The notes under the pieces were generated by a model, which ran no database searches, was not told the DNA's origin, and worked only from the letters and a program-made list of their open reading frames with translations. A stretch of 64,000 bases of DNA from NCBI GenBank assembly GCA_965204085.1, contig CBDBEE010000002.1, forward strand, positions 840,913-904,912, in the 5' to 3' direction. A program made the translations under genes and the position numbers. Within the stretch, counting starts at the first letter, position 1, and each line of letters begins with the position of its first letter. The DNA is from Candidatus Poribacteria bacterium (lineage in GTDB: Bacteria; Poribacteria; WGA-4E; JAJDTR01). Positions 8,756 to 64,000 of the stretch are shown in pieces.

Positions 8756-9963
8756 ATGGAATTCGAGCAATCGGAAAAACACGAAACTGTCCAACAACAG
8801 GTTTACGGATTTTCGCGTGATGAAATCATACCTATTATCGTAGAACATGATAGAAGAGCCGAATTTCCGCATGGATTACTGCCAAAGCTAGCTGCCCACG
8901 GTTTTCTAGGGGTGTGCCTACCAGTACGCTATGGTGGGGCGGGTATGGATTACGGCGCGCTTGCTGTGGTATCGGAGGGATTAGAATGGGCAGATTCTTC
9001 CGTACGTGAAACGATTGCTGTCCACCTTGGACTACACGCTTTACCGATTTTTCAATGGGGAACGACCGCTCAGAAGCAGCATTTCCTGCCTTCGCTAGCC
9101 CATGGCGAAAATATCGGTTGTTTCGGTTTAACAGAGTCAGGATGTGGCTCGGATGTATCTGGATTGAGTTGCCGTGCTCGTAAGGAAGGTGACTACTATA
9201 TATTGACGGGCAAAAAAACCTGGGTTACCCTCGCTAACGTCGCCAACCGCATGTTGGTTTTCGCCAAAACGGATCCTAGCCAAGGGACACGCGGAATTAC
9301 CGCGTTCATTCTAGAACGCGGTTGGGAGGGGATAACTACGGGGACCATTGCGGGCAAGATGGGAGTAAGAGCTAGTGATACAGGCTGGATCAAAATGGAA
9401 AATGTAGCCGTGCCGGAAAGCCATCGATTGGGTGAAGAGGGAGAGGGCTTCAAGATCGCCATGAGTGCACTGGATAATGGTCGTTATACCGTCGCTGCCG
9501 GAGCAGTCGGATTGATGAAATCTTGCCTGCAGGAATCTGTTCGATACGCTCGCAGCCGCAAAACCTTTGGAAAACCCATTGCCGAACACCAACTCGTTCA
9601 ACAAATGATTGCTCTAATGCAGCAGCGCATCGATCTGGGCGAATTGCTAGTGCAAAAAGTGGCATATCTGAAAATCGTGGTATGCGCAACACCCGCGAAA
9701 CGAGCATGGCAAAATGGTACTGCACAGAATCTGCGAACGCTACAGCCAATGATGCCGTGCAAATTCACGGAGCATACGGTTATTCTGATGAGTGCAGCGT
9801 CGAACGCCACCTCCGGAACAGCAAAAGTGCAACGATTTATGAGGGCACCTCTCAGATTCATCAACTGATGCAGGCTGGTTATGTCTTTGGGTTTAGGGAG
9901 GATAAACCGTTGCGCTGCGAATTACCTGCCTACGATTCCGATTTCTGGCAAGTTGATGCATAG
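8756..9963 (+). CDS. acyl-CoA dehydrogenase, interrupted by a frameshift near 9671
   Basis: The N-terminal and middle ACAD domains sit in frame 2, in the ORF ending 9868. The C-terminal ACAD part ([11 protein letters not shown]...[10 protein letters not shown]) is in frame 1, ORF 9523-9963. The switch happens at an A4 run, where an A5 run would restore [17 protein letters not shown]. Confidence 0.8.
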
Positions 9964-15104: not shown

Positions 15105-15274
15105 AAACGTGCGTAGTTTCCACCTGTCGCCCCTCTGGGGCTTTGCTGTAGGTCGAATCAATGTTTCTATACACCTTCCGCCCCTCTGGGGCTACCAAGA
15201 TTTAAATGGGTCGCGACCTGGAGATCGCTCCTACAAAATAAGCACTTCTCAGCAGCGTGGAGTATAAACCTATA

Positions 15275-21496: not shown

Positions 21497-21580
21497 TAGG
21501 AGGTAGCGATTCTGAGATCGCTCCTACAGTTCGGTTGTTAGAAGCGGGTTACGGCACACGGCGTGTGCCTACTACTATTG

Positions 21581-25810: not shown

Positions 25811-26252
25811 AGAAAATGTCCCCTTTATGTATGGATAACCAATTTTGGTAATTGTTTAGATCAGTCCAGAACTTACGCGTCAACAGGAAATCGCGACCTG
25901 GAGATCGCTCCTACATTACGCTCAGGGATCTCTATGGGAATTCTATCGCATTCGCTATCCGCTCATTTGATCGCTCACTATCCGTTCGCTTGATGGTGTA
26001 GGAACGGGGATTAAACTGCAGCACGACGAACCAACATTCCCAAAACAGATTGATATACTCAGCACCGGTTAATTTTGGGCAATTGTGCACCGAAGGTTTG
26101 TAGGAGCGATCTCCGAATCGCGACTGTCGGGAATCGGTGGGAACTCCTCCTACCGCCTGCAAAACTCATGCTCCATTTCTTGACTCTTAAAAACGCAACT
26201 TCCAACAGCGTAGAGTATAGACTAAACAATTACCAATCGCGCATAGCCCAAC

Positions 26253-28483: not shown

Positions 28484-29585
28484 ATTGCCACCTCGTGGTT
28501 AACAGCTAGCGGTTAGTGAATCCTTCATAAGAATCACGTAATTGTTTAGTCCATCGGTCTGGATTTGCCAATCCAGACCGAGCGGGGCAGGGAACGCGCC
28601 GAGTAGGGAAGTACAATGCTAATTCCGGCTAATCGGGGCTTACATGCCCAGACCGGACGTGCAACGAACTGTAATACTACGAACCAAACGATGCACTAAA
28701 CAGTTACAGAATCATGTTGCCGTTAAAAGCGAAATCGGAAAATCGACTGGTTTCTTAGGGCTTGTTTGAAAGTTCTCGGTACGACCCAAAAACGTCATTA
28801 GGTCATCTTGAGAAATTTCATACTTTTCATACCAAATCGAGGTTTTCAGTAGACGTGGAATAAGGGCTTGACACCTTGCTATGACTGGATTTTAAGTGGT
28901 TTTGTCACTATAGCTATTTAAGCAGAGGTATGAAATCCTAGATGTTATCCAAGACAATTTCAGTTGACACATTGGCGCTATTCTCATTAGATAAGTTGGC
29001 TCTCCAAAGAGGTGCCAAAGAGGTGCTAGAATACTGAACATTTGTATTAAGACTAAAGTAACGTATTTGCTAAACGGGGAAGGGTTTCGTACACTTGTCA
29101 TGGTAGCTTAAAGCTACAATCAATCAACAACGTCTTTACCGTTTAAAATTAACGCAAGTTGACACCTAATCGTTAATAGTTGGATTTGCATTTTTCTGGG
29201 TGTTGTATCGCAGTCCCGCTCGGCTTGGATAGACATATCCAAGCCGTACCTGCATGTGTGCAGTGGATTTGTCAATCCACTGCGAGCAAGTTGAGTAGAT
29301 TTTGCTTACATTGCCCCGATTTGCGACGTATCCCATTAGACGGTCGGGCTAGAAGCCTGGGGGATTTCTATCGCGCTCCTTATTCAGTCAGTTGATCACT
29401 CATTGTTCACTCGCTTGATCCCCGCTGGGGCTTAGGCACGGGGCTTCGGAGTTTCTACACACCTTCAAGATCTCCCCTCGGTCGCGAGTTCTTATCACGA
29501 GTAGAACTTGCTTCTACAAAAGATACGCAGCAAACAGTGTTTCGACAGATGGAACTGTCTAGTCCCAAATGTAAAATCCCTAGCT

Positions 29586-32472: not shown

Positions 32473-32751
32473 TCATGCAGTTCGATATAGTTCAGTGGTT
32501 GCCTAGCCAAGAGATTATGTAATCGGATTGAATTAGTACGCACACGCTGTGTGCCGTCAACTGCCTTACGTCGACTAGTAGGAACAATCTCCAGGTCGCG
32601 ACCACGTCCTTACTTCATTTTAATGCAATCAAAGAGTTCGCGACCGGGAGGTCGCTCCTACCTATACTCGGGTGGTACAGTGTGGTTTACGGCACACGGC
32701 GTGTGCCTACTACTTTGAAACGATGCCATAGACTCTTAGCGAGCGAACCAT

Positions 32752-34527: not shown

Positions 34528-35702
34528 TTGTGAACGTTGCCAAAATTTGGATTATACACCGATCTGTGCACCTTGTAAAGCGATTTCAGCAGCAATCCAT
34601 CGCACCCGGTCCCCGATAACCGACAGCACACGACTATCGATTTTCGTTCGCGGTCTCCCCTTTGCGTACCAGGCTCATAGTGCTAGAATGCGTTGTTCAG
34701 CCTCTCTGTCGGAGCGACCTCCTGGTCGCGACAAAACCGAGTTTTTTCCTCGCCCGCGCAGTTCCACCTTCGGTCATCAAATCGAAGATGCAATTTCCAA
34801 GTCTTGAATATTGAATTGCTAGGGGAAACGCATCTATACCTTGCGTTGGGTAATATTGCGCTTGTTTTCGCAGCACTAACGTCTCGCGATTCGGAGATCG
34901 GAGGGATCTCAATCAGGATCTACTATGGGATAGCTATCAGGATTGGCTATGGGATCCCTATCGTCCTCGTTATTCACTCACTTGATCGCTCATTATCCAT
35001 TCGCTTGAGGGATCTCTATGGGATTTCTATCGCCCTCGTTATTCACTCGGTTGATCCTTCCTTATCCAGTCAGTTGATCCTGCCGTTTATGGGGTGTTTT
35101 GGTGATTGTCTGAATCACGGATTTTCACTGATTAAACGGATTACACGGATTACGGGATCTCTATCGCGCTCCTTATCCAGTCGCTTGATCCTTCTGTTGA
35201 GTAAAATTGAGCTTGTTTCCTCGACAATTATGGTTTTTAATACGACTTACGCGGCGCCAGCAGGTCGCGATTGGGAGATGGGATCTCTATGGTCGTATAG
35301 AGGCGATCACAATCTAACAGATTGTGGTACAGAAATCTATGATCCCACTTGATCGTGGCTGCTACTCTACCAGACGCTCGAAAACACGCAATTTTCAGCA
35401 GCGTGAAGTATAATTATAGAGGATGTCTCATGGCGGTAGAATGTACGATTAATGTTGGGTTTCACTCGAATTTTGGCACGTTCAGGCAAAGCGGGAACTC
35501 GAAAACTCCTCTAAGATTGGCGATTATTAACGAATTCCGTTCAACCCAACCTACGACTGCGATGCGATTTCCAAGTCTTGATGATTGAATTGCCTTGACG
35601 CACTTCATCACTCCTTGATAAAATGCGAACTTAACGCGCTGCTCTGGAGCAACTTGCCCATTGGGGGCGCAGTAAAATCAACGGCGAGAAAAGAGAAAAA
35701 CT
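34528..35702. repeat. 1.2-kb repeat-rich noncoding island
   Basis: It contains arrays of 12-nt GGATCTCTATCG-like units and 22-nt ...TTATCCAGTCGCTTGATCC-like units, the gatgcRatttccaagtcttga repeat (two copies), and the ttcagcagcgtgaagtataa motif. Confidence 0.5.
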
Positions 35703-37612: not shown

Positions 37613-40600
37613 ATGAAAAAATCCCTGTTTGTCATGTTTATCCATTTATTCATTTCTGTCCTGTTTTTGCAGAACAGTTTCGCGCAGGAATATACACGAT
37701 GGGGGCTGCCGGAGGGCGCTACGGCGCGCCTGGGAAAAGGTGGAATAAATGAAATCGCGTTTTCGCCGGACGGGTCACAGTTTGCAGTGGCAAGTAGTAT
37801 CGGCATCTGGCTCTATGACCCGAACACCGGCACTGAAGTCACCCTCCTCACCGGGCATACGTCCTCTGTCAATTGTGTAGCCTTCAGTCCAGATGGGAAG
37901 ACTATCGCCAGTGGGAGTTCCGACGATACCATCCGTTTGTGGGATGCTACCACTGGAGTTCATAGGCAATCACTTACCGTCCATAACTCTATTGTCAATA
38001 GCCTAGCCTTCAGCCCGGATGGGAAAACTATTGCCAGTGGGAATGGTTCCATCACAGGTGAAGATAACACAATCCGTATGTGGGACGCCGTTACTGGAAA
38101 ACTTAAGCAGACAATCTCCGGGCACGCAGACATAGTTACTAGTGTCGTCTTTAGTTCCGATGGCAGTGCACTTGCAAGTCAGACTTTCGGTTTCGACAAA
38201 CAGATTCATATCTGGAATGCTTACACAGCCGACCTCAAGTGGAGGTCAAGCTTGCCTGAGTATTCGGTCCGTAGCATCGCTATAAGCCCCGATTGGTACA
38301 CAGTTGCAAGCGGGAGTAGTGACGGAACAATCCGTCTGTGGGATGTTGTCACGGGAGCACATAAGACGACGCTTGCCGGGCATACGGATCCGGTCAATAT
38401 CATTGTCTATAGCCCGGATGGACTTACAATCGCCAGTGGCGGTTTCGACGGTACAATCAGGCTGTGGAATGTCGCCACGGGAGCACAAAAGGCGACGCTT
38501 GCCGGGCATACGAGTTGGATTGACCACATCGCCTTCAGCCCGGACAGTAATACGATTGCTAGTGGAAGTGACGACAGAACCATGCGGCTGTGGGATGTTA
38601 CCACTGGAGCACAAAAATGGATCGTCCACGAGCATACGGATTCGATAAACAGCATCGCCTATAACCCGGATGGACGTACAATCGCCAGTGGTGGTTTCGA
38701 CGGCACCATCCGGTTATGGAAAGTTGCTATGGGCGAGGTCAAGCGAAGTTTCGGGTTTGGGTACGGAGTCGCTCTGAGCCCAGACGGGCGCACAATTGCA
38801 AGTCAAGTTATTGACGAGATTTTTCTGTGGGACGCAAGCACAGGAGCACAAAAGCAAGTTCTCACCGGGCATACAGATCGCGTTCAAAGCATCGCATTCA
38901 GCACGGATGGGCGCACAATCGCCAGCGGGAGTCAGGATAAAACCATCCGGCTATGGGATGTCGCCACGGGAGTACAAAAGCGAGTTCTCACCGGGCATAC
39001 AGATCACGTTCAAAGTATCGCATTCAGTCCCGATGGGAATATGCTTGCCAGTGGGAGTTGGGACCATACCATCCGCCTATGGAATGTCCTGACGGGCAGA
39101 AACAAGCACACGCTCACAGGTCATACAGCTTTCGTCAACTGTGTCGCATTCAGTCCCGATGGGATCGTGCTTGCCAGTGGGAGTGACGACATTCGCCTAT
39201 GGGAGGCCGACACGGGGGCGCACAAGCGAACGCTCACCGGGACGAGATCGGTCGGGAGCCTAGCTTTCAGCCCGGATGGGGATACAATCGCTAGTGGAGG
39301 TTCGGGCGGTACTATCCAACTGTGGGATGCTCTTACATGTACTAAGAAGCGCACATTCACTGGTCATACATATCGGGTCAACAGTGTGGTTTTCAGTCCA
39401 GATGGAAACACAATTGCCAGCGGGAGTGAAGACGGGACAATTCTGATGTGGAACCCGCTTCCTGATCCAAGTGTAATCGTTACGGAGCGCGGGTTTGACA
39501 ACTATAGTCTGGGGCCCGCTCAGCAGGGACTGCCTGATGGTGCTAAGGCGCGGCTTGGTAAGGGTTCGGCATCTAAGATTGCATATTCTCCAGATGGAAC
39601 ACGTCTTGCTGTCGCGAGTAGCATTGGGATTTGGCTCTATGATGTCCACAGCGAGAGCGAAGTCGACCTTCTGACCGGGCATACACATCGTGTCTCTAGC
39701 GTAGCGTTCAGCCCGGATGGGAGCACAATCGCTAGCAGCAGTAATGGGATTCGTGACAATACCATCCGTCTATGGGATGCTGTCACGGGGGAACACAAGC
39801 TGACACTAGTCGGGCATACAGATGCGGTCATTAGTGTTGCTTTCAACCCGGACGGTGGTACGATTGCCAGTGGAAGTGATGACAATACCATTAGGATGTG
39901 GGACACTATCACAGGCGTACACAAGCTGACGCTCACGGGGCATTCTAGCAACGTTAGCAGCGTAACGTTCAGCCCAGATGGAAGGACCATTGCCAGTGGA
40001 AGTGATGACAAGACCATTAGAATGTGGGACACTATCACAGGCGCACACAAGTTGAGACTCACCGGTCATACGGATTGGGTGACTAGTGTCCTCTTCAGCC
40101 TAGACGGTAGCACAATTATCAGCGCCAGTAGAGACAAGACAATCCGTCTGTGGGATGCTACCTCAGGCGCACACAAGCTAACACTAGCCGGGCATACAGA
40201 CCCAGTCATTTGTGTCGCCTTCAACCCGGATGGGAGTATGATCGCCAGTGGGGGTTTGGACAAGACCCTCCGACTGTGGGATGCTACCTCAGGCGCACAC
40301 AAGTTGACACTCACCGGCCATACGGATTGGGTGACTAGTGTCCTCTTCAGCCCAGACGGTAGCACAATTATCAGCGCCAGTAGAGACAGGACAATCCGTC
40401 TGTGGGATCTTCTCAAAGGCACCGATAAGATATTCGCTCGGGACAAGATGAAGGCCAATAGTGTTACCTTCAGCCCAGATGGGAGAACACTTGCCACTGG
40501 AAATCACGACAATACAGTCCGATTGTGGGATACCGTCACAGGCGGACACAAACAGACGCTCACCTGGCACACCGATGAGGTCACTAGTCTCGCCTATAGC

Positions 40601-41299
40601 CCAGACGGCGACACGCTTGCCAGTGGTAGTAAGGATTATACCATCTGTCTGTGGGATGCCGTCACAGGCAAACATAAGCGGACACTTACTGGACATACGT
40701 TTAATGTAAATAGCATTGCGTTTAGCCCGGATGGCAGGATTCTGGCTAGCACGAGTAATGATAATACTATCTATTTGTGGGACGTTCCGACAGGTACACT
40801 CAAGCACACTCTTATTGGGCATACGAATTGGGTTACTGCCGTTGCGTTCAGCCCAGATGAGAAAACACTTGCCAGTGCGAGCTACGACACCACCGTGCGG
40901 CTGTGGGACTCCGTCATGGGCAAATTCAAGCGGACATTCACCGGTTATAATCTTGCAGTCCGGAGTGTTGCCTTCAGTCCAGATGGGAGAACACTTGCCA
41001 CTGGAAGTGGCGACAATGTCCGATTGTGCGACGCCATTACGGGCATGCACAAGCGGATCCTCGCCGGACATACGAATTGGATCGATAGTGTCGCGTACAG
41101 CCCTGATGGGCATACGCTCGCCAGTGGCAGTTGGGACCATACCATCCGACTATGGGACACCATCACAGGTACTCACAAGCAGACCCTCGCCGGACACACA
41201 GATTCGGTTGTGGGGCTCGCATTCAGCCCGGATGGAACCACGCTCGCCAGTTGTAGTGAGGATGGTACGATTCTATTGTGGGATGTGACCGCCGAATAA
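37613..41299 (+). CDS. WD40 repeat protein (about 28 repeats, two homologous halves), secreted
   Basis: Signal peptide. Reiterated GHTxxVxSVAFSPDGxTIASGSxDxTIRLWD units. The N-terminal block GLPEGATARLGKGGINEIAFSPDG reappears at about residue 630. Confidence 0.9.
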   Translation: MKKSLFVMFIHLFISVLFLQNSFAQEYTRWGLPEGATARLGKGGINEIAFSPDGSQFAVASSIGIWLYDPNTGTEVTLLTGHTSSVNCVAFSPDGKTIASGSSDDTIRLWDATTGVHRQSLTVHNSIVNSLAFSPDGKTIASGNGSITGEDNTIRMWDAVTGKLKQTISGHADIVTSVVFSSDGSALASQTFGFDKQIHIWNAYTADLKWRSSLPEYSVRSIAISPDWYTVASGSSDGTIRLWDVVTGAHKTTLAGHTDPVNIIVYSPDGLTIASGGFDGTIRLWNVATGAQKATLAGHTSWIDHIAFSPDSNTIASGSDDRTMRLWDVTTGAQKWIVHEHTDSINSIAYNPDGRTIASGGFDGTIRLWKVAMGEVKRSFGFGYGVALSPDGRTIASQVIDEIFLWDASTGAQKQVLTGHTDRVQSIAFSTDGRTIASGSQDKTIRLWDVATGVQKRVLTGHTDHVQSIAFSPDGNMLASGSWDHTIRLWNVLTGRNKHTLTGHTAFVNCVAFSPDGIVLASGSDDIRLWEADTGAHKRTLTGTRSVGSLAFSPDGDTIASGGSGGTIQLWDALTCTKKRTFTGHTYRVNSVVFSPDGNTIASGSEDGTILMWNPLPDPSVIVTERGFDNYSLGPAQQGLPDGAKARLGKGSASKIAYSPDGTRLAVASSIGIWLYDVHSESEVDLLTGHTHRVSSVAFSPDGSTIASSSNGIRDNTIRLWDAVTGEHKLTLVGHTDAVISVAFNPDGGTIASGSDDNTIRMWDTITGVHKLTLTGHSSNVSSVTFSPDGRTIASGSDDKTIRMWDTITGAHKLRLTGHTDWVTSVLFSLDGSTIISASRDKTIRLWDATSGAHKLTLAGHTDPVICVAFNPDGSMIASGGLDKTLRLWDATSGAHKLTLTGHTDWVTSVLFSPDGSTIISASRDRTIRLWDLLKGTDKIFARDKMKANSVTFSPDGRTLATGNHDNTVRLWDTVTGGHKQTLTWHTDEVTSLAYSPDGDTLASGSKDYTICLWDAVTGKHKRTLTGHTFNVNSIAFSPDGRILASTSNDNTIYLWDVPTGTLKHTLIGHTNWVTAVAFSPDEKTLASASYDTTVRLWDSVMGKFKRTFTGYNLAVRSVAFSPDGRTLATGSGDNVRLCDAITGMHKRILAGHTNWIDSVAYSPDGHTLASGSWDHTIRLWDTITGTHKQTLAGHTDSVVGLAFSPDGTTLASCSEDGTILLWDVTAE

Positions 41300-42335: not shown

Positions 42336-42410
42336 CTTCAGTAGGGTGGGCACTGCCCGCCATTTCTTGTGGAATGTAATTAACTAACGCGAGTTGCTAC
42401 CTATAACAAA

Positions 42411-42505
42411 GAAACCGAGTTTTTGGTTCGCGTGCGCTAAATCATAGGTAAATTTGGCTGATTTCCGTAAATTTTGAGTTTCCACGTTGGAAAAAACTCG
42501 GTTTC
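42411..42505. repeat. long hairpin with conserved arms gaaaccgagttttt / aaaaactcggtttc and a variable loop of about 65 nt, copy 1
   Basis: Inverted repeat seen directly in the sequence. The same arms recur at 45604-45635 and 56638-56731. Confidence 0.6.
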
Positions 42506-42626
42506 TGCGCTTCGTCGGACAAACGTGGCAACTTGGGTTAACTATCATCACATCCCCGACTCGTTTTCTACTGAAATCAAGCAAAAATTCGTTGAATTTC
42601 ATCACACGGCTACGGAGGAATCTACC

Positions 42627-45587
42627 TTGACAACAGAAATCGTATGCACCACCATATTCATGGCGACATTTCTCGCTACCAACAACATAACCTGGAGCGA
42701 GGATAAGGAGATTGTCGGTGAACGCCCCTACGAAATGGAATGGGCAAACCGCACCGAAGACACCTACCCACCTCTAATTGATTTTGAAGACTTGGCAGGA
42801 TGGCGCGTTGAGACCTCTAATGCGACCGCAACTTTCCAACGCTCGCGAGAACAGCAACTCTGGGGGAAATACGTTGCCAAACTCACCTACCGCGCGACGG
42901 AAGCCAATCCCGAAATCCGCATCAGTCCTCCAGCCCCCATACCGATTCAAAACGGCTTTGAGGTGGTCTCCTGCTGGATCTTCGGCAAAGAACGCCATCG
43001 CCCGAAGATTTCCGCGCTGTTCAAAACTTCCGATGGACGCGAGATGCTGTTTTCCATGCGCGCGGATTGGGATAACTGGGGATGGTTTCAATCTTACTAC
43101 CGATTGTCTCCCGATCAAATTGATCTCGTCGCGGACGGTTCCACTTTCACCGGGTTCATCATTCGTGATTCCAACGAACCGGAAGATCGCCTGATCTGCT
43201 TTGACAATCTAGCCGTCTTCACTGAAGACTTCAAACCGCTGTATTTCAAGCCGCGTCCTCGACGCGGCATCCCGATGTTCCCCGGACAAGGAACGGGGAC
43301 GAACACCGGTCCCGGCAAACTCCCGTTTCCAACGCGGAAGGAAACCATTTTGCCCGACAACCTGACAGACGAATTCACGACACACATACAAGCCGAGGGC
43401 GGTGGTTTTACCTTTCGCTATGAGGGCGTGGACGGCACTCTGATTTACCGGCTTGAGCCTCGTACCGGCACGTTGAGTGACATCAGCGCCGAGTGGGTGG
43501 GGCTAGGCGGTCCGATTCAGCCGTGCGTCGGCGGTGGCGTGTATCTGGCGACCAAGGCGGATTCCCCCTCTCCACCTGAGTCCACCGAGCATTTAGGCAC
43601 GGACCTCCAAGATGAGAAGGTCGTCTCGCGATGGCGGCTAAAGGCTAAAGGAGTGACGCAGGACGTAATTTATGTATATCGACTCTGGAACAAATCGCTT
43701 GCAATTGACACGCTTGCCCCCGGTGGGGACGTTGCCGAAGTAAGATACGGAAAGGCTGTCGGCGTGGAGAATCCGCGCCTGGTCGACAATCCGTTTTACA
43801 CCTACAACGGCTACATTCCCGACGGACGTCCGGCGGTTGTCGTCGCCGGTTCGCAAGACGCGCCGCTGTTCCTGACCGGAAACACCGACTGGTACCTATC
43901 CAATGCCTCAATGCTGCTGCCCTCGCCTTCCCTGACGCCCGATGGAGTTGTCTACAACACCGGCACGCGGTATATTCCCAAAACCAACGGCGCGCGGGTT
44001 GATTGTTACGAGCGATTTTTCATCACCGTTTCCCCGCGTTACGAGGAGATGTTGCCCACTATTCCGAATCCAAAGTCCCCGTGGCTGAGTCATGTGGGCA
44101 CCCGGCTCTGGAAAGCGCATCAGTCCGAAAATCCGCGAGCAGACGGGATACGCTTTTTCAGAAAACTGCACCGGTACGGGATAACCGAAATGACAATCAC
44201 CGACCATGAAGGCGGATGGCGCGACGGAGGTGAAAGTTTTACGTTTCGAACCCGCGGCGCACCTGAAAAGGGGGGCGACGAAGGATGGGCGGAATATTCC
44301 CGCGTTCTACGGGACGACATCGGTTACATTTACGGTCCTTACACGCAGTTCCTTGATATCGCAGCCGTCAATGAATACTGGGACACCGACATCATCACGC
44401 GAACCCCCGACAATCGGATGCACGGGGGCTGGCGCCGTTGTTACCGAGCCAAGCCCGCCCGATCCCCGGAATATTGCGAGTTGCTGTCGCCAATCATCAA
44501 AGAAAATTTCGGATTCAACGCGAGCTACCTAGACGTGCATACACTCCACACCCTGGATTTTGTAGATTACGACTACCGTGTGCCCGGCGCCGCGACCTTT
44601 GCTGCAACCTTCTACGCCTACGGAGAAACCATGCTGATTCAAAAGCAAATATACAACGGACCGGTATTCTCGGAGGGTGGTCACCAATTCATCTTTAGCG
44701 GCCTGATTGATGGGAACTACGCTCAGGACCGTGCGGGCAAAGTGAAGTTGGCTTGGGGACCGTGGTTGGTGGATTTTGAACTTCGGAAAACTCACGATTT
44801 GTGTGCCAATATCGCAATGGGAGAGTACGGCATGTTCTACCGGGGAGAGGAGCCGGAACCAAGTGGTCGCTCGGGTGAAGATCCGCGTAGTGACCGGCAC
44901 ATTGCCGCGACCATCGCGTTCGGTCACGTCGGCATCCTCCAATACGAAGACCCGCTTCCGCGCATGATGCGAATCTACTACATGCTACAGCAATTGCAGA
45001 GCCGCTATGCGATGTCTAGCGTGGCGGAAATACGGTATGCGGACGCGGACGGAAATCTCTTGGATACCACTGCCGCCGTGGCATCCGGCGCCTACAAACG
45101 CTCACAGATCGTGACCCGTTACCGGAGCGGGTGCATCACCGTGGTAAACGGCAATGCAAATGACGAATACATGGCGGTAAACGCCTACGGAAGGCGCGTA
45201 ACACTGCCTCCGAACGGTTATGCTGGCTGGACCGAAGATGGAGCGATTGAGATTTTTAGCGGCGAGATTCACGGTCACCGCGCTGATTACGCAGTGACAC
45301 CCGAATATATCTTCATTGATGGGCGTAGTAAATCAACGCGATTCCCCAAAGCGGAAGGAAATGGAGTAGGAATCTGCCGCATTCGTCCGGATTGGAAATA
45401 CGAGGTAATTCTGTTTGACGGCTCCGATTGCGGTTTCGCGATCGAAGCAAATCAAGCCGTGGCGCTAGACGAAGAAAGAAATGAGATTGGAACGACAACA
45501 CTGCGCGAGTCTGACCGTTTCATCTACGTAGAGCAAGTGCCGGGCGCCTTCAGCTACTTGCTCAGCACCGACAACTCCTCAAAATAA
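42627..45587 (+). CDS. large hypothetical protein of unknown function (about 986 aa)
   Basis: A long ORF with no recognisable motif. The likely TTG start at 42627 is preceded by GGAGG, since the annotated upstream portion overlaps the hairpin element. The N-terminus is hydrophobic. Confidence 0.5.
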   Translation: MTTEIVCTTIFMATFLATNNITWSEDKEIVGERPYEMEWANRTEDTYPPLIDFEDLAGWRVETSNATATFQRSREQQLWGKYVAKLTYRATEANPEIRISPPAPIPIQNGFEVVSCWIFGKERHRPKISALFKTSDGREMLFSMRADWDNWGWFQSYYRLSPDQIDLVADGSTFTGFIIRDSNEPEDRLICFDNLAVFTEDFKPLYFKPRPRRGIPMFPGQGTGTNTGPGKLPFPTRKETILPDNLTDEFTTHIQAEGGGFTFRYEGVDGTLIYRLEPRTGTLSDISAEWVGLGGPIQPCVGGGVYLATKADSPSPPESTEHLGTDLQDEKVVSRWRLKAKGVTQDVIYVYRLWNKSLAIDTLAPGGDVAEVRYGKAVGVENPRLVDNPFYTYNGYIPDGRPAVVVAGSQDAPLFLTGNTDWYLSNASMLLPSPSLTPDGVVYNTGTRYIPKTNGARVDCYERFFITVSPRYEEMLPTIPNPKSPWLSHVGTRLWKAHQSENPRADGIRFFRKLHRYGITEMTITDHEGGWRDGGESFTFRTRGAPEKGGDEGWAEYSRVLRDDIGYIYGPYTQFLDIAAVNEYWDTDIITRTPDNRMHGGWRRCYRAKPARSPEYCELLSPIIKENFGFNASYLDVHTLHTLDFVDYDYRVPGAATFAATFYAYGETMLIQKQIYNGPVFSEGGHQFIFSGLIDGNYAQDRAGKVKLAWGPWLVDFELRKTHDLCANIAMGEYGMFYRGEEPEPSGRSGEDPRSDRHIAATIAFGHVGILQYEDPLPRMMRIYYMLQQLQSRYAMSSVAEIRYADADGNLLDTTAAVASGAYKRSQIVTRYRSGCITVVNGNANDEYMAVNAYGRRVTLPPNGYAGWTEDGAIEIFSGEIHGHRADYAVTPEYIFIDGRSKSTRFPKAEGNGVGICRIRPDWKYEVILFDGSDCGFAIEANQAVALDEERNEIGTTTLRESDRFIYVEQVPGAFSYLLSTDNSSK

Positions 45588-45603
45588 CCTAAGAATCACT
45601 GTA

Positions 45604-45635
45604 GAAACCGAGTTTTTCCCCCAAAACTCGGTTTC
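45604..45635. terminator. hairpin gaaaccgagtttt-loop-aaaactcggtttc immediately after the stop of the large unknown ORF
   Basis: 13-bp stem with a 7-nt loop. It is a short-loop member of the same inverted-repeat family. Confidence 0.5.
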
Positions 45636-45871
45636 TTGAAATATCCCCACTAACTTATTTTACCATTTCTATAAAATGGAAGTGCATTGATTACGTGGAT
45701 TAAGTAAAGAAACTTGCTTGGAACTGAACAACAAGCCTCGTCTCTGCGCGAAGTCCGCGGGGCAAGGGGATCTCTATCGCATTCGCTATTCGCTCATTTG
45801 ATTCCCGCCTACGGAAAAAGTGGACGATACCATTCAGACATCATATGCACTATTATTCAAGCGAAATGGTA

Positions 45872-48204: not shown

Positions 48205-48442
48205 CATATCACCGGGGAGTGCACTGATGAATTAAAGTAGAGTTCCTAGCGGAAGCGATTACGGCACTTGGTTGTGCAACCGTCGGTATTATCTGCAGCG
48301 ATATTCCCGATTGGATTTCAGCGTTTGAAAACTTTTCCTATGATTAGATTGATTGCTTCCCCCTCAATACTGTAGGAGCGATCTCCGAATCGCGACTCCA
48401 GCGCGCAATTTCCAATAAGAAATAAAAAGGAGGAACTACAAA

Positions 48443-52470: not shown

Positions 52471-53067
52471 TTACTCCGCCATTTTCCGAATCTCAGGACT
52501 GGAAGACATCTGCCGTATCACATCGTCTCCAAGATTTCGGATGGCATCCTTCACAGAGTCGGCAAACGCCTTCCCCTTTGCGCTAAAAAGAACACCTTTA
52601 GCCGAAGCGTGTCCTTTGCCTAACGCCGTAACAGCGGCAATTTCTGTCATTTCGGGACTGTAACAGGTCAGTTTCGCAGTTAGAGAGTTGCTCGATTCGC
52701 TACTGTCTCCGATATAGACGAAGGTTCCTACCTCGTACCTAACCTGTGCAGTGACGACAAGGTTTAGCTGGCTATCGGCTATAGATTCTAATGTCGGGTA
52801 CGAATCTAACGCCTCAACGGAAGCGAAAACGCGCCGAGTCGCTCTGGTAAGGGTCGAAACAAGGTCTTTACCTATTCGCAAATCATACTTCTTTTCGTCA
52901 TCTTTGAGGATTTCGTATCTGGGCTCAAAGGAGGTTATTAGAGACAGGGTGTCTTCAGTGAAAAAAAGGCCGACCCTCAAATCCATGCGATCCGAGTTGT
53001 CGGAACACCCGATGACACCAATCGCAACAGTTATGAGTAAAATGCTGCGGCAATAATCAAACATCAT
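52471..53067 (-). CDS. lipoprotein, paralog 1 of a tandem triplicated family
   Basis: Lipobox IGCSDNSD. Conserved N-terminus MMFDYCRSILLI and C-terminus NLGDDVIRQMSSSPEIRKMAE. Confidence 0.7.
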   Translation of the reverse strand: MMFDYCRSILLITVAIGVIGCSDNSDRMDLRVGLFFTEDTLSLITSFEPRYEILKDDEKKYDLRIGKDLVSTLTRATRRVFASVEALDSYPTLESIADSQLNLVVTAQVRYEVGTFVYIGDSSESSNSLTAKLTCYSPEMTEIAAVTALGKGHASAKGVLFSAKGKAFADSVKDAIRNLGDDVIRQMSSSPEIRKMAE

Positions 53068-53238
53068 TCTTCATCGTCTTTCGAGTGTGAAAATTGAGAT
53101 TGGATACCGGAAAAATTCCCGATTCCACTATCTGAGAAAGACCAGCTTAAGAGTCTATTTGAAAATCCATTTCCAGTAGAACTATGAAACCGAGCCTCTC
53201 TATTGCCCTCATTTGACGACCTCCTTTTCTGGCTTGAA

Positions 53239-53835
53239 CTATGGAGTAATTGTCGCGTTAACTTTCTCCGCCATGTTCCGAATCTCAGGATTGGAAGACA
53301 TTTGCAGTGCCACGTCGTCTCCAAGATTGCGGATGGCAGACTTTGCTGATTTGACACGAGCTCTCCTCTCCGAGCTAAACACAATGCCCTGAGCCGAAGC
53401 GTTTCCTCGTCCAGACGCCTTAATCACTGCGATTTCTACCATTTCGGGATTGTAACAAATAAGTTCAACGCTTATGGTGCGGCTTGCTTCACTCTGATTC
53501 AGCAAACCATTTCCTTGATAGCTGCCGCTGCCACCCATAGACCCAAATTGCACAACGACAGCAAGTTTTAGCTTTCCATTGGCTATTGACTCTTGTGTCG
53601 GATCTGATTCTAACTCTTCAACAGACCTGAAGATGCTCTGAGTCGATCTAATAAGCGTTGATACAACGTCTTCGCCCAACTGTAAATCACCTTCACTATC
53701 CGCAAGCATCAGATTTCGCGTGTTTTCAGCGAAAAAAATGCCGACCTTCAAATCCATCCGATCCGAATTGTCGGCACACCCAACGACAACAAACGTAGTA
53801 GCAATGAGCAATACGCCACGGCAAAAATCAAACAC
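53239..53835 (-). CDS. lipoprotein, paralog 2 of a tandem triplicated family
   Basis: Lipobox VGCADNSD. Termini conserved and central about 100 aa divergent. Confidence 0.7.
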   Translation of the reverse strand: MFDFCRGVLLIATTFVVVGCADNSDRMDLKVGIFFAENTRNLMLADSEGDLQLGEDVVSTLIRSTQSIFRSVEELESDPTQESIANGKLKLAVVVQFGSMGGSGSYQGNGLLNQSEASRTISVELICYNPEMVEIAVIKASGRGNASAQGIVFSSERRARVKSAKSAIRNLGDDVALQMSSNPEIRNMAEKVNATITP

Positions 53836-54009
53836 AATTCTCCATCTCCTTTCAAGTTTGAAAATTGAGTTTGAGTATCGGAAAAATTCCTGATTCCACT
53901 ATCTGAGAAAGACCAGCTTAAGAACCTATTTGAAAATCCATTTCCAGTAGAACTATGAAGCCCAGCCGCTCTATTACCTTCATTTGACGACCTCTTTTTC
54001 TTGCTTGAA

Positions 54010-54633
54010 CTACGGAGTAATTGTCGCGTTAACTTTCTCAGCCATGTTCCGAATCTCAGGATTGGAAGACATTTGTAGTGCCACGTCGTCTCCAAGATTG
54101 CGAATAGCAACCTTCACTGCACCGACAAAAGCTCTCCTTCTTGAGTCAAACAGAATGCCTTTCGCCGTAGCATTCCCTTCCCCTGACACAGTAACCGCGG
54201 CGACTTCTATCATTTCAAGATTGAAACAAGTCAGTTCAGCGGTCAGGGCCCTGCTTGCTTCGCTACTATTCTGGATACTGTTTCCCTCATAGCCGAGGGA
54301 GCCTCCAGCCGGTCTAACCTGTACAACAACGACAACATTTAGCCGTCTGTCGGCTATAGACTCCTTTGTCGGATAAGAGTCTAACACCTCGACAAAAGCG
54401 AAAACGCGTCGAGCCGCTTTGGAAAACGTCGATACAATGTCTTTATCTACCCGCAAGTCGTCTTTTGCATCAAAGACGGGATAGTGATGGGGTTCAAAGG
54501 ACATTGTTAGACGCTGCGTGTCTTCCGTGAAAAAAATGCCGACCTTCAAATCCATGCGATCCGAATTGTCGGCACACCCGATGAGGACAGTCGCAACGAT
54601 AATGAGCAGATTACCACGGCAAAAATCAAACAC
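54010..54633 (-). CDS. lipoprotein, paralog 3 of a tandem triplicated family
   Basis: Lipobox IGCADNSD. Termini conserved and central region divergent. Confidence 0.7.
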   Translation of the reverse strand: MFDFCRGNLLIIVATVLIGCADNSDRMDLKVGIFFTEDTQRLTMSFEPHHYPVFDAKDDLRVDKDIVSTFSKAARRVFAFVEVLDSYPTKESIADRRLNVVVVVQVRPAGGSLGYEGNSIQNSSEASRALTAELTCFNLEMIEVAAVTVSGEGNATAKGILFDSRRRAFVGAVKVAIRNLGDDVALQMSSNPEIRNMAEKVNATITP

Positions 54634-56578: not shown

Positions 56579-56637
56579 TCTGGTCAATTGGTTTGCCGAA
56601 TTGACTCAAGTTAACGACTTGACTCGAAAAGGGCACA

Positions 56638-56731
56638 GAAACCGAGTTTTTTCGTCGCGGACACACAAGTTCGACAAAAATCTACCATATTCTATCATAA
56701 TTCGGCACGGGTGAACCAAAAACTCGGTTTC
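56638..56731. repeat. long hairpin with gaaaccgagtttttt / ccaaaaactcggtttc arms and a variable loop, copy 3
   Basis: Seen in the sequence between mazG and the methyltransferase gene. Confidence 0.6.
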
Positions 56732-56787
56732 TCTGTTACTGGTAACAGCTTGAAGAAAGTATTTAACCATATTATCGGAAGCCAAGC

Positions 56788-63806: not shown

Positions 63807-64000
63807 TCAAGATCTCTATCGCACTAGGAACTCTATCGCCTTCGCTATCCGCTCAGTTGATCTATTCGCTCGTTTGATCCCCTCTGGGGCTTATGATGCT
63901 CATACACATAGAAGAGAGAAAATTGGTGATTAGGTGATTGCAGAGAAGATTCCTTCACTTCTAGAATCAGGTGCGATTGCCCTAATGAGCATCCTTTTGC

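Follow-up and report, generated by a model that had tools for sequence, protein, structure and literature searches.

Hairpins with common arms in Candidatus Poribacteria: probable copies of a ~152-bp MITE family whose internal palindrome recurs in other repeat families

In a 64,000-nt stretch of DNA from a Candidatus Poribacteria bacterium (contig CBDBEE010000002.1; hereafter the window, with all coordinates given as positions within it), we studied three hairpins built on common arms, two of which lie on either side of a gene for a 986-aa protein. The two long hairpins are very likely the inner inverted repeats belonging to a pair of oppositely oriented copies of a non-autonomous MITE (miniature inverted-repeat transposable element) of ~152 bp that is abundant in Candidatus Poribacteria, with the 986-aa gene being a resident of the locus and the short hairpin behind it a solo palindrome. 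An earlier reading of the same DNA (the original prediction) had instead seen in the hairpins a MITE-like mobile cassette or a recombination site enclosing the gene.

The arms, GAAACCGAGTTTTT / AAAAACTCGGTTTC, are located at 42411-42424/42492-42505, at 45604-45617/45622-45635 (with 1 mismatch) and at 56638-56651/56718-56731. That three hairpins with common arms are real, as originally predicted, is borne out both by their number and by their folding: allowing up to 2 mismatches, the 14-mer arm matches the window at 9 sites, where dinucleotide shuffling predicts 0.87 and none of 100 shuffled versions attains that number, and all three hairpins fold stably on either strand, with z-scores from -2.5 to -7. 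The loops had been described as unrelated, which turned out to be incorrect for the two long hairpins once the opposite orientation of the copy at 56638 relative to the copy at 42411 was used. When aligned as reverse complements, the two loops are identical at 43 of 68 positions (63%), with a score of 15 vs -9.3 +/- 4.3 for shuffled sequences (0/2000). Moreover, the similarity of the two long copies extends 23-24 nt beyond the 15-nt arms on each side and then stops abruptly; the long hairpins are thus the inner part of a larger unit of ~152 bp and not the whole feature. Over the full elements, copy 1 and copy 2 are identical at 109 of 156 positions (70%).

A scan of GTDB species-representative genomes for the two exact arms spaced 55-85 nt apart returned at least 100 loci, nearly all of them in metagenome-assembled genomes (MAGs) of Ca. 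Poribacteria, from about 17 genomes and with tens of matches on single chromosomes. Among the matches listed, the arm-to-arm length of the units has a sharp peak at 94-97 nt, and one core sequence is common to 78 of 107 units, which we call the main family, F1. When 75 F1 copies were aligned with 150-nt flanks, conservation started and ended abruptly, delimiting a unit with a modal length of 152-153 bp in which an outer terminal inverted repeat (TIR) and an inner arm, both of 15 nt and with a 9-19-nt spacer between them, precede a ~65-nt core, the second half mirroring the first. The consensus reads, on the left, outer repeat ACCCAAGTTGCCACC, spacer TTTGTCCGACAGGGGCAC and arm AGAAACCGAGTTTTT, followed by the 65-nt core, and, on the right, arm AAAAACTCGGTTTCT, spacer CTGTTATA and outer repeat GGTAGCAACTTGCGT. 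The outer TIRs ACCCAAGTTGCCACC / GGTAGCAACTTGCGT are paired in 83% of cells over 16 positions (49 copies), and perfect 6-bp direct repeats flank 17 of 47 copies vs 0.96 expected with shuffled partners, the logo of these target-site duplications (TSDs) being T-A-n-y-T-A. An nhmmer model of 158 positions built from the 75 copies found 119 non-redundant matches in the sampled DNA (8-kb samples around copies, 933 kb), and exactly two full copies in the window. Some copies (L077, L044) are split by insertions of ~200-225 bp, and one (L085) is cut at its end by another F1 copy.

No open reading frame (ORF) of at least 100 aa starts inside either window copy, save for a 1037-aa ORF call at 42474, which is the 986-aa gene overextended to the first in-frame TTG, lying by chance in copy 1. 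The element is small and non-coding, and it has TIRs, TSDs, many dispersed copies and presence/absence polymorphism, all of them defining features of MITEs as applied here from a review (PMC10969869). For the two long copies, the "MITE-like" label of the original prediction was well chosen, given their TIRs, 6-bp TSDs, high copy number and an orthologous empty site. An origin of the palindrome from phage was considered and rejected, with 0 matches to either its short or its long form in IMG/VR. Units with the same arms were also seen on contigs binned to Chloroflexota (L015, an Anaerolineales MAG; L027; and L090, a Chloroflexota MAG); either these contigs are DNA of Poribacteria that was mis-binned, or the units have passed from one sponge symbiont to another.

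Copy 1 is full length and occupies 42387-42538 on the minus strand (nhmmer 42385-42539(-), 152 bits, E 3.6e-45), with outer TIRs ACGCGAGTTGCTACC and GGCAACTTGGGT and with its inner hairpin, the first of the original prediction, at 42410-42506 (arms 42410-42424 and 42492-42506, 67-nt core). It is flanked by the identical hexamer TAACTA at 42381-42386 and 42539-42544, its left and right TSDs. When the copy and one hexamer are deleted, the resulting GTAATTAACTATCATCACATCCCC runs collinear with GCGGTTAACAATCATCAAATCCCC, the empty site of L002, one of three related Poribacteria chromosomes (L001-L003); the element is also absent from that spacer in L001 and L003. Copy 1 very likely reached its place upstream of the 986-aa gene only once this lineage and these relatives had separated. 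Copy 2, a degenerate F1 element at about 56604-56755 on the plus strand (nhmmer 56603-56752(+), 111 bits, E 1.3e-32), has its inner hairpin, the third of the original prediction, at 56637-56732 and occupies most of the spacer between mazG and the DNA methyltransferase gene. Its outer TIRs are eroded and it has no recognisable TSD; copy 2 is older than copy 1. A fourth arm in the window, truncated and followed by the start of a core (AAAACCGAGTTTTTTCCTCGCCCGCGC, 34733-34760, plus strand, inverted repeat I25), is probably a fragment of a further copy, and was not detected by nhmmer with the element model at E<1e-3.

The comparison with relatives also bears on the 986-aa gene itself (42627-45587, plus strand; TTG start, ribosome-binding site GGAGG at 42613-42617), which is not part of the mobile element. 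Among its >760 homologues the nearest, at 85-90% identity, are those of L001-L003, where the start codon and the ribosome-binding site are conserved and the gene order is ABM, GFO/IDH oxidoreductase, a 562-660-aa gene, pdxA, the 986-aa gene and a convergent flavin reductase, the 562-660-aa gene (no Pfam match) replacing the WD40 gene of the window. The upstream MITE is missing from all three; their pdxA-to-gene spacers, of 212-857 bp, contain other repeats. The neighbours of the gene are thus unchanged in three relatives without the upstream element, and so it is no cassette: it is resident and vertically kept, the upstream MITE is without functional tie to it, and the part that varies between genomes is the repeat and not the gene. 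Checking relatives for polymorphism of cassette presence, as had been proposed, thus showed a constant gene and a repeat that comes and goes. In addition, pdxA has a terminator-like hairpin of its own directly behind it (GGGTGGGCACTGCCC plus a T tract, 42344-42361, plus strand), upstream of the MITE and with a conserved counterpart in L002 (about 9738-9760); with this likely terminator of pdxA upstream of the insertion, the 986-aa gene would form a separate transcription unit.

There is thus hardly any probability left that the hairpins are recombination sites of the integron attC type, or cassette ends that mobilise the 986-aa gene. The idea owes its appeal to the two copies on either side of one gene and to arms with variable centres that superficially resemble attC, yet besides the synteny of the gene in relatives without the upstream copy, the two flanking units differ in kind, the upstream one being a 152-bp element with a TSD and the downstream one a 34-bp solo palindrome. 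Furthermore, the arms AGAAAC...GTTTCT do not match the attC core sites RYYYAAC/GTTRRRY, the window contains no integrase or cassette array, and the copies are without orientation bias relative to genes. The flanking itself, which had been called precise, is loose: upstream, 107 nt separate the end of the inner hairpin from the ribosome-binding site, and downstream the short hairpin begins 16 nt past the stop codon.

Using gene calls made simply as the longest ORF, none of 78 F1 copies was found inside an ORF, all being intergenic, and the spacers were of the tandem type in 58 cases, divergent in 9 and convergent in 5. In tandem spacers the orientation of the element relative to the genes showed no bias (28 to 30, p = 0.9). 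The original prediction had allowed for the arms belonging to an abundant repeat of the lineage with no association to gene boundaries; an abundant lineage-wide repeat is what they are, while they are tied to gene boundaries only in the generic sense of lying between genes. We then have to consider that the units could be host regulatory modules, be it mobile cassettes with a promoter or terminator or binding sites (operators) for a global regulator, retained at each site because of what they do to the genes beside them. Promoter-bearing MITEs and terminator-like elements have been described (PMC10969869), the F1 core carries the motif TTGACG-N19-TATAAT, with conservation of at least 90% at its TTGAC and AAT..ATTT positions, copy 2 directs this motif toward the DNA methyltransferase gene, where a promoter scan called TCGACA-16-TATCAT, and the short palindrome resembles a bidirectional terminator that has persisted since before the split from L002. 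Against this stand the random orientation relative to genes, by which a directional promoter cassette was rejected and which leaves a selected promoter role without support, the 19-nt spacer of the motif, its aim in copy 1 at the 3' end of pdxA, the polymorphic presence of the units between relatives, and decayed copies whose arms are unprotected at individual loci. On balance, we regard selection for such regulatory effects as very unlikely.

A role as RNA was likewise rejected. A scan of the whole window at Rfam gathering scores gave 0 matches and a tRNA scan was also empty, RNAalifold kept only the invariant inner arms with a covariation term of 0, and pair counts for the outer TIRs, the inner arms and a small CGTG-GAAA-CACG stem equalled shuffled values. 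With neither covariation nor an Rfam match, the inverted repeats look like features that work at the level of DNA. The core consensus was also inspected for a site for integration host factor (IHF) and did not fit WATCAANNNNTTR.

The short hairpin at 45603-45636 is a solo palindrome, AGAAACCGAGTTTT-TCCCCC-AAAACTCGGTTTCT, placed between the convergent 986-aa and flavin reductase genes. It has a 14-bp stem and a 6-nt loop (-18 to -20 kcal/mol, z of -6 to -7), and has neither the outer sequence of the MITE nor any conserved outer flanks. In L002, behind a homologous spacer and 14 nt past the orthologous stop codon, we found the remnant AGAAACCG, followed by a deletion that reaches the flavin reductase stop; given this remnant at the orthologous position, the palindrome is probably older than the divergence from the L002 lineage. 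In L001 this intergenic region contains a short hairpin that lies 22 nt from the stop of the other gene. At the RNA level, an A tract precedes the CCGAG/CUCGG core of the hairpin and UUUCUU follows it, the latter provided that the A/U base of the stem is open. From these sequence features, it would most likely serve as a bidirectional intrinsic terminator between the two convergent genes. The sampled 933 kb contains 36 such short hairpins, besides 110 long pairs and 30 unpaired arms. Two of the short hairpins have the outer arm of the main MITE on one side, and therefore deletion of the internal core can yield short forms. Short palindromes also occur in tandem arrays with a period of ~68 nt, each unit following CGAGCGAGCAAAGGGCGCGACTCGGAA (L019:3063-3162, L024:3681-3779 and L024:7110-7235).

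Several observations weigh against reading these units as a transposon family with a solo, terminator-like derivative. In the sampled 933 kb, TIR matches paired at IS-like distances were only noise and revealed no autonomous partner that has these TIRs, and there is no transposase among the neighbouring ORFs of the window. The TSDs are imperfect in 30 of 47 copies, besides being unrecognisable at copy 2. Since all copies were found by exact arms, ascertainment accounts for part of the apparent invariance of the arms; bystander copies exist with 1-4 arm mismatches and decayed copies with independently mutated arms, from which it follows that the arms are not protected locus by locus. The promoter-like motif of the core has a spacer outside the usual 16-18 nt and no orientation preference toward genes. 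Finally, a terminator consensus scan does not flag the short hairpin, which is explained by its U-rich tail lying within the full stem.

With these points set beside the boundaries, duplications and empty site described above, we still favour the MITE family, and hypothesise that a DDE-type transposase acting in trans would move it through 6-bp staggered cuts at TAnyTA targets. Copies would survive only between genes, and the inner arms would probably be kept for aiding the propagation or the tolerance of the element and not for a service to the host at each copy. As to the parent element, the ends of F1 begin with AC and have a T at position 9 on both sides, which fits the AC(N)6T part of the inverted-repeat logo of IS982, AC(N)6T(N)5TT (PMC7335449), whereas the TT of F1 is one position off this logo. 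Direct repeats are of variable length in the IS982 family (PMC7335449), and so a 6-bp TSD is compatible with it. No IS982-type transposase with F1 ends was found in the 8-kb samples around copies. The match of the ends makes an IS982 parentage of the main family a possible lead and not an assignment to that family. L002 has an IS1595 transposase, with no such ends nearby.

The palindrome is not confined to F1, as the same arms stand at the centre of at least five MITE-like repeat families with different outer repeats. One of these is a side family of IS66 type, with copies at L029:2970-3133, L047:1517-1689, L060:863-1035, L064:4298-4468 and L087:5759-5920, no copies beyond these five and none in the window. 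Its ends begin with GTAAGCG, and 8-bp direct repeats (ATGAAGTT, GTTCATGG) flank 2 of the 4 testable copies; a TIR starting with GTAAGCG and 8-bp direct repeats are hallmarks of IS66 (PMC11946415). Unlike that family, the side-family elements are of ~145 bp, non-coding, and contain the internal palindrome of the main family. Across the families the core sequence has drifted almost past recognition, but the unit still measures 93-97 nt and islands of TTGAC, AAATC and CAATT persist.

This distribution could reflect a palindrome that is mobile by itself, that is, a unit similar to the repetitive extragenic palindromes (REPs), moved by a single-strand transposase of the REP-associated tyrosine transposase (RAYT) or IS200 type, nesting at the apex of other palindromes as well as in unique DNA, with the 152-bp units as its carriers. 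The presence of the arms both solitarily and at the centre of families with unlike ends, the IS66-type one included, and the recurrent 6-nt loops among the 36 short hairpins of the sampled DNA would agree with this. Yet there are no direct repeats or conserved target sequence beside the arms, the GTAG/CTAC motif typical of REPs is absent, and the surroundings of the copies showed no Y1 transposase gene, though a genome-wide search was not made. Furthermore, the cores of different families have common islands and a constant length, which argues for common descent of the whole 95-nt unit and against repeated insertion. We consider a palindrome of this kind improbable.

Elements moved by unrelated transposases would have no binding site for a transposase in common. 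It is more likely that the common arms work through their structure or via a host factor, render insertions harmless, or are themselves mobile. A tentative proposal, to which we would give perhaps one chance in a handful, is that the arms (13-15 nt, adjacent or split by a ~65-nt core of constant length) form a cis-acting module that has been kept in, or has spread into, MITEs of unrelated transposases, namely IS982-like (6-bp TSD), IS66-like (8-bp TSD) and at least three other sets of ends. Such a module might join the ends of elements that are too short to loop, might be a site for a host factor, or might be a mobile palindrome that targets the tips of palindromes.

The 986-aa protein had been described as having no recognisable family. 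By sequence this remains the case, as we obtained no Pfam match, no PDB match with phmmer and no PDB profile match; by predicted fold it does not, the protein resembling glycoside hydrolase (GH) families GH129 and GH101. An AlphaFold model (AF2) made from 36 homologues reached a mean predicted local distance difference test (pLDDT) of 82 and a predicted template modelling score (pTM) of 0.81, with an architecture of beta-sandwich domains, a (beta/alpha)8 barrel and C-terminal beta-sandwiches. The nearest structures in Foldseek were GH129 (3,6-anhydro-D-galactosidase and the alpha-N-acetylgalactosaminidase NagBb) and GH101 (E 6e-13 to 1e-11, probability 1.0), followed by GH97/GH31 (overall E range 1e-12 to 1e-9), with template modelling (TM) scores of 0.54-0.62 when normalised to the GH129 targets. 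The order of domains, from N-terminal beta-sandwiches through the (beta/alpha)8 barrel to C-terminal beta-sandwiches, is common to the 986-aa protein and GH129/GH101, whereas the identity is 10-13%, with no family membership at the level of sequence. Residues D526, E528, D636, E683, D695 and D716 of the protein are invariant. The model points to a protein that is probably a sugar-cleaving, glycoside-hydrolase-like enzyme, and its hydrophobic N-terminus suggests that it may be exported, probably by secretion. Genes nearby are predicted to code for a sulfatase, PhyH dioxygenases, FG-GAP proteins and a GHL10 protein, a content that fits glycan breakdown. Most homologues (in Planctomycetota, Verrucomicrobiota, Kiritimatiellota and Armatimonadota) are of ~1445 aa, with ~460 residues beyond the Poribacteria form. 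The WD40 protein encoded nearby (1228 aa, 37613-41299) has ~25 repeats with a DNA periodicity of 126 nt; the length of this repeat array differs greatly among relatives, given that the gene at that place in L001-L003 is of only 562-660 aa.

The window contains other repeats as well. A separate family of short units, GGGATCTCTATCGC...CTCGTTATYCACTCRCTTGATC, has at least 11 intergenic copies in the window, often in tandem (including 25922-25996, 29347-29421, 34937-35190, 45759-45803 and 63818-63879), and is also found around the 986-aa gene in L001. Copies of an inverted-repeat family, TCGCGACCTGGAGATCGCTCCTAC, lie at 15209-15237, 21503-21530, 25891-25918, 26097-26124, 32578-32661, 34708-34731 and 48368-48396, and one of them adjoins the truncated arm at 34733. 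On the minus strand, 52471-54633 holds three tandem paralogous ORFs of 198-207 aa with 65-85% DNA identity and no Pfam match.

Taken together, these results remove a false lead, there being no gene cassette or recombination system at the 986-aa gene, and describe what appears to be a new MITE family, for which ends, target preference and consensus are defined, from a candidate phylum that is uncultured and restricted to sponges; a literature search found no paper linking Poribacteria and MITEs. The family can be of use for annotating Poribacteria MAGs, for strain-typing and for flagging hotspots of assembly breaks. The internal palindrome, which families with different transposition signatures have in common, is the only feature here that could inform more generally on how very short transposons are constructed. 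For the 986-aa protein, the GH-like fold is an initial pointer to the function of a large family (>760 members, without a Pfam model) that is frequent in Planctomycetota, Verrucomicrobiota and Poribacteria.

Among known repeats, the Correia elements of Neisseria (CREE/NEMIS) duplicate a TA and have 26-bp TIRs and an IHF site. The Poribacteria element differs from them in its 6-bp TSD (TAnyTA), its outer TIR of ~15 nt and its second, internal inverted repeat of 15 nt, and it is without a recognised IHF consensus or sequence similarity to them and belongs to a different phylum. At the same time, Correia elements are non-coding, ~100-200 bp long and bounded by TIRs, with hundreds of mostly intergenic copies in either orientation, sigma-70-like promoter motifs and RNA hairpins (PMC10969869), and the Poribacteria element is alike in its similar size, lack of coding capacity, TIRs, intergenic placement in either orientation and sigma-70-like motif. 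SPRITE, RUP and BOX of Streptococcus pneumoniae and ERIC/IRU of enterobacteria are further small intergenic repeats, known to insert into one another, of which SPRITE resembles rho-independent terminators (PMC10969869), as does the solo palindrome described here. Their sequences and hosts are unrelated to ours, and here, unlike in those systems, one palindrome spans several families with different ends. Finally, in the REP/REPIN-RAYT system short extragenic palindromes occur in many copies, some of them in larger hairpin-forming doublets, which recalls the short and long forms in Poribacteria; no RAYT was seen near the copies, although a genome-wide search was not made. The long form is however not a REP doublet, since its arms are not themselves palindromes, and the long units, which have no GTAG/CTAC motif, possess outer TIRs and TSDs that REPs lack.

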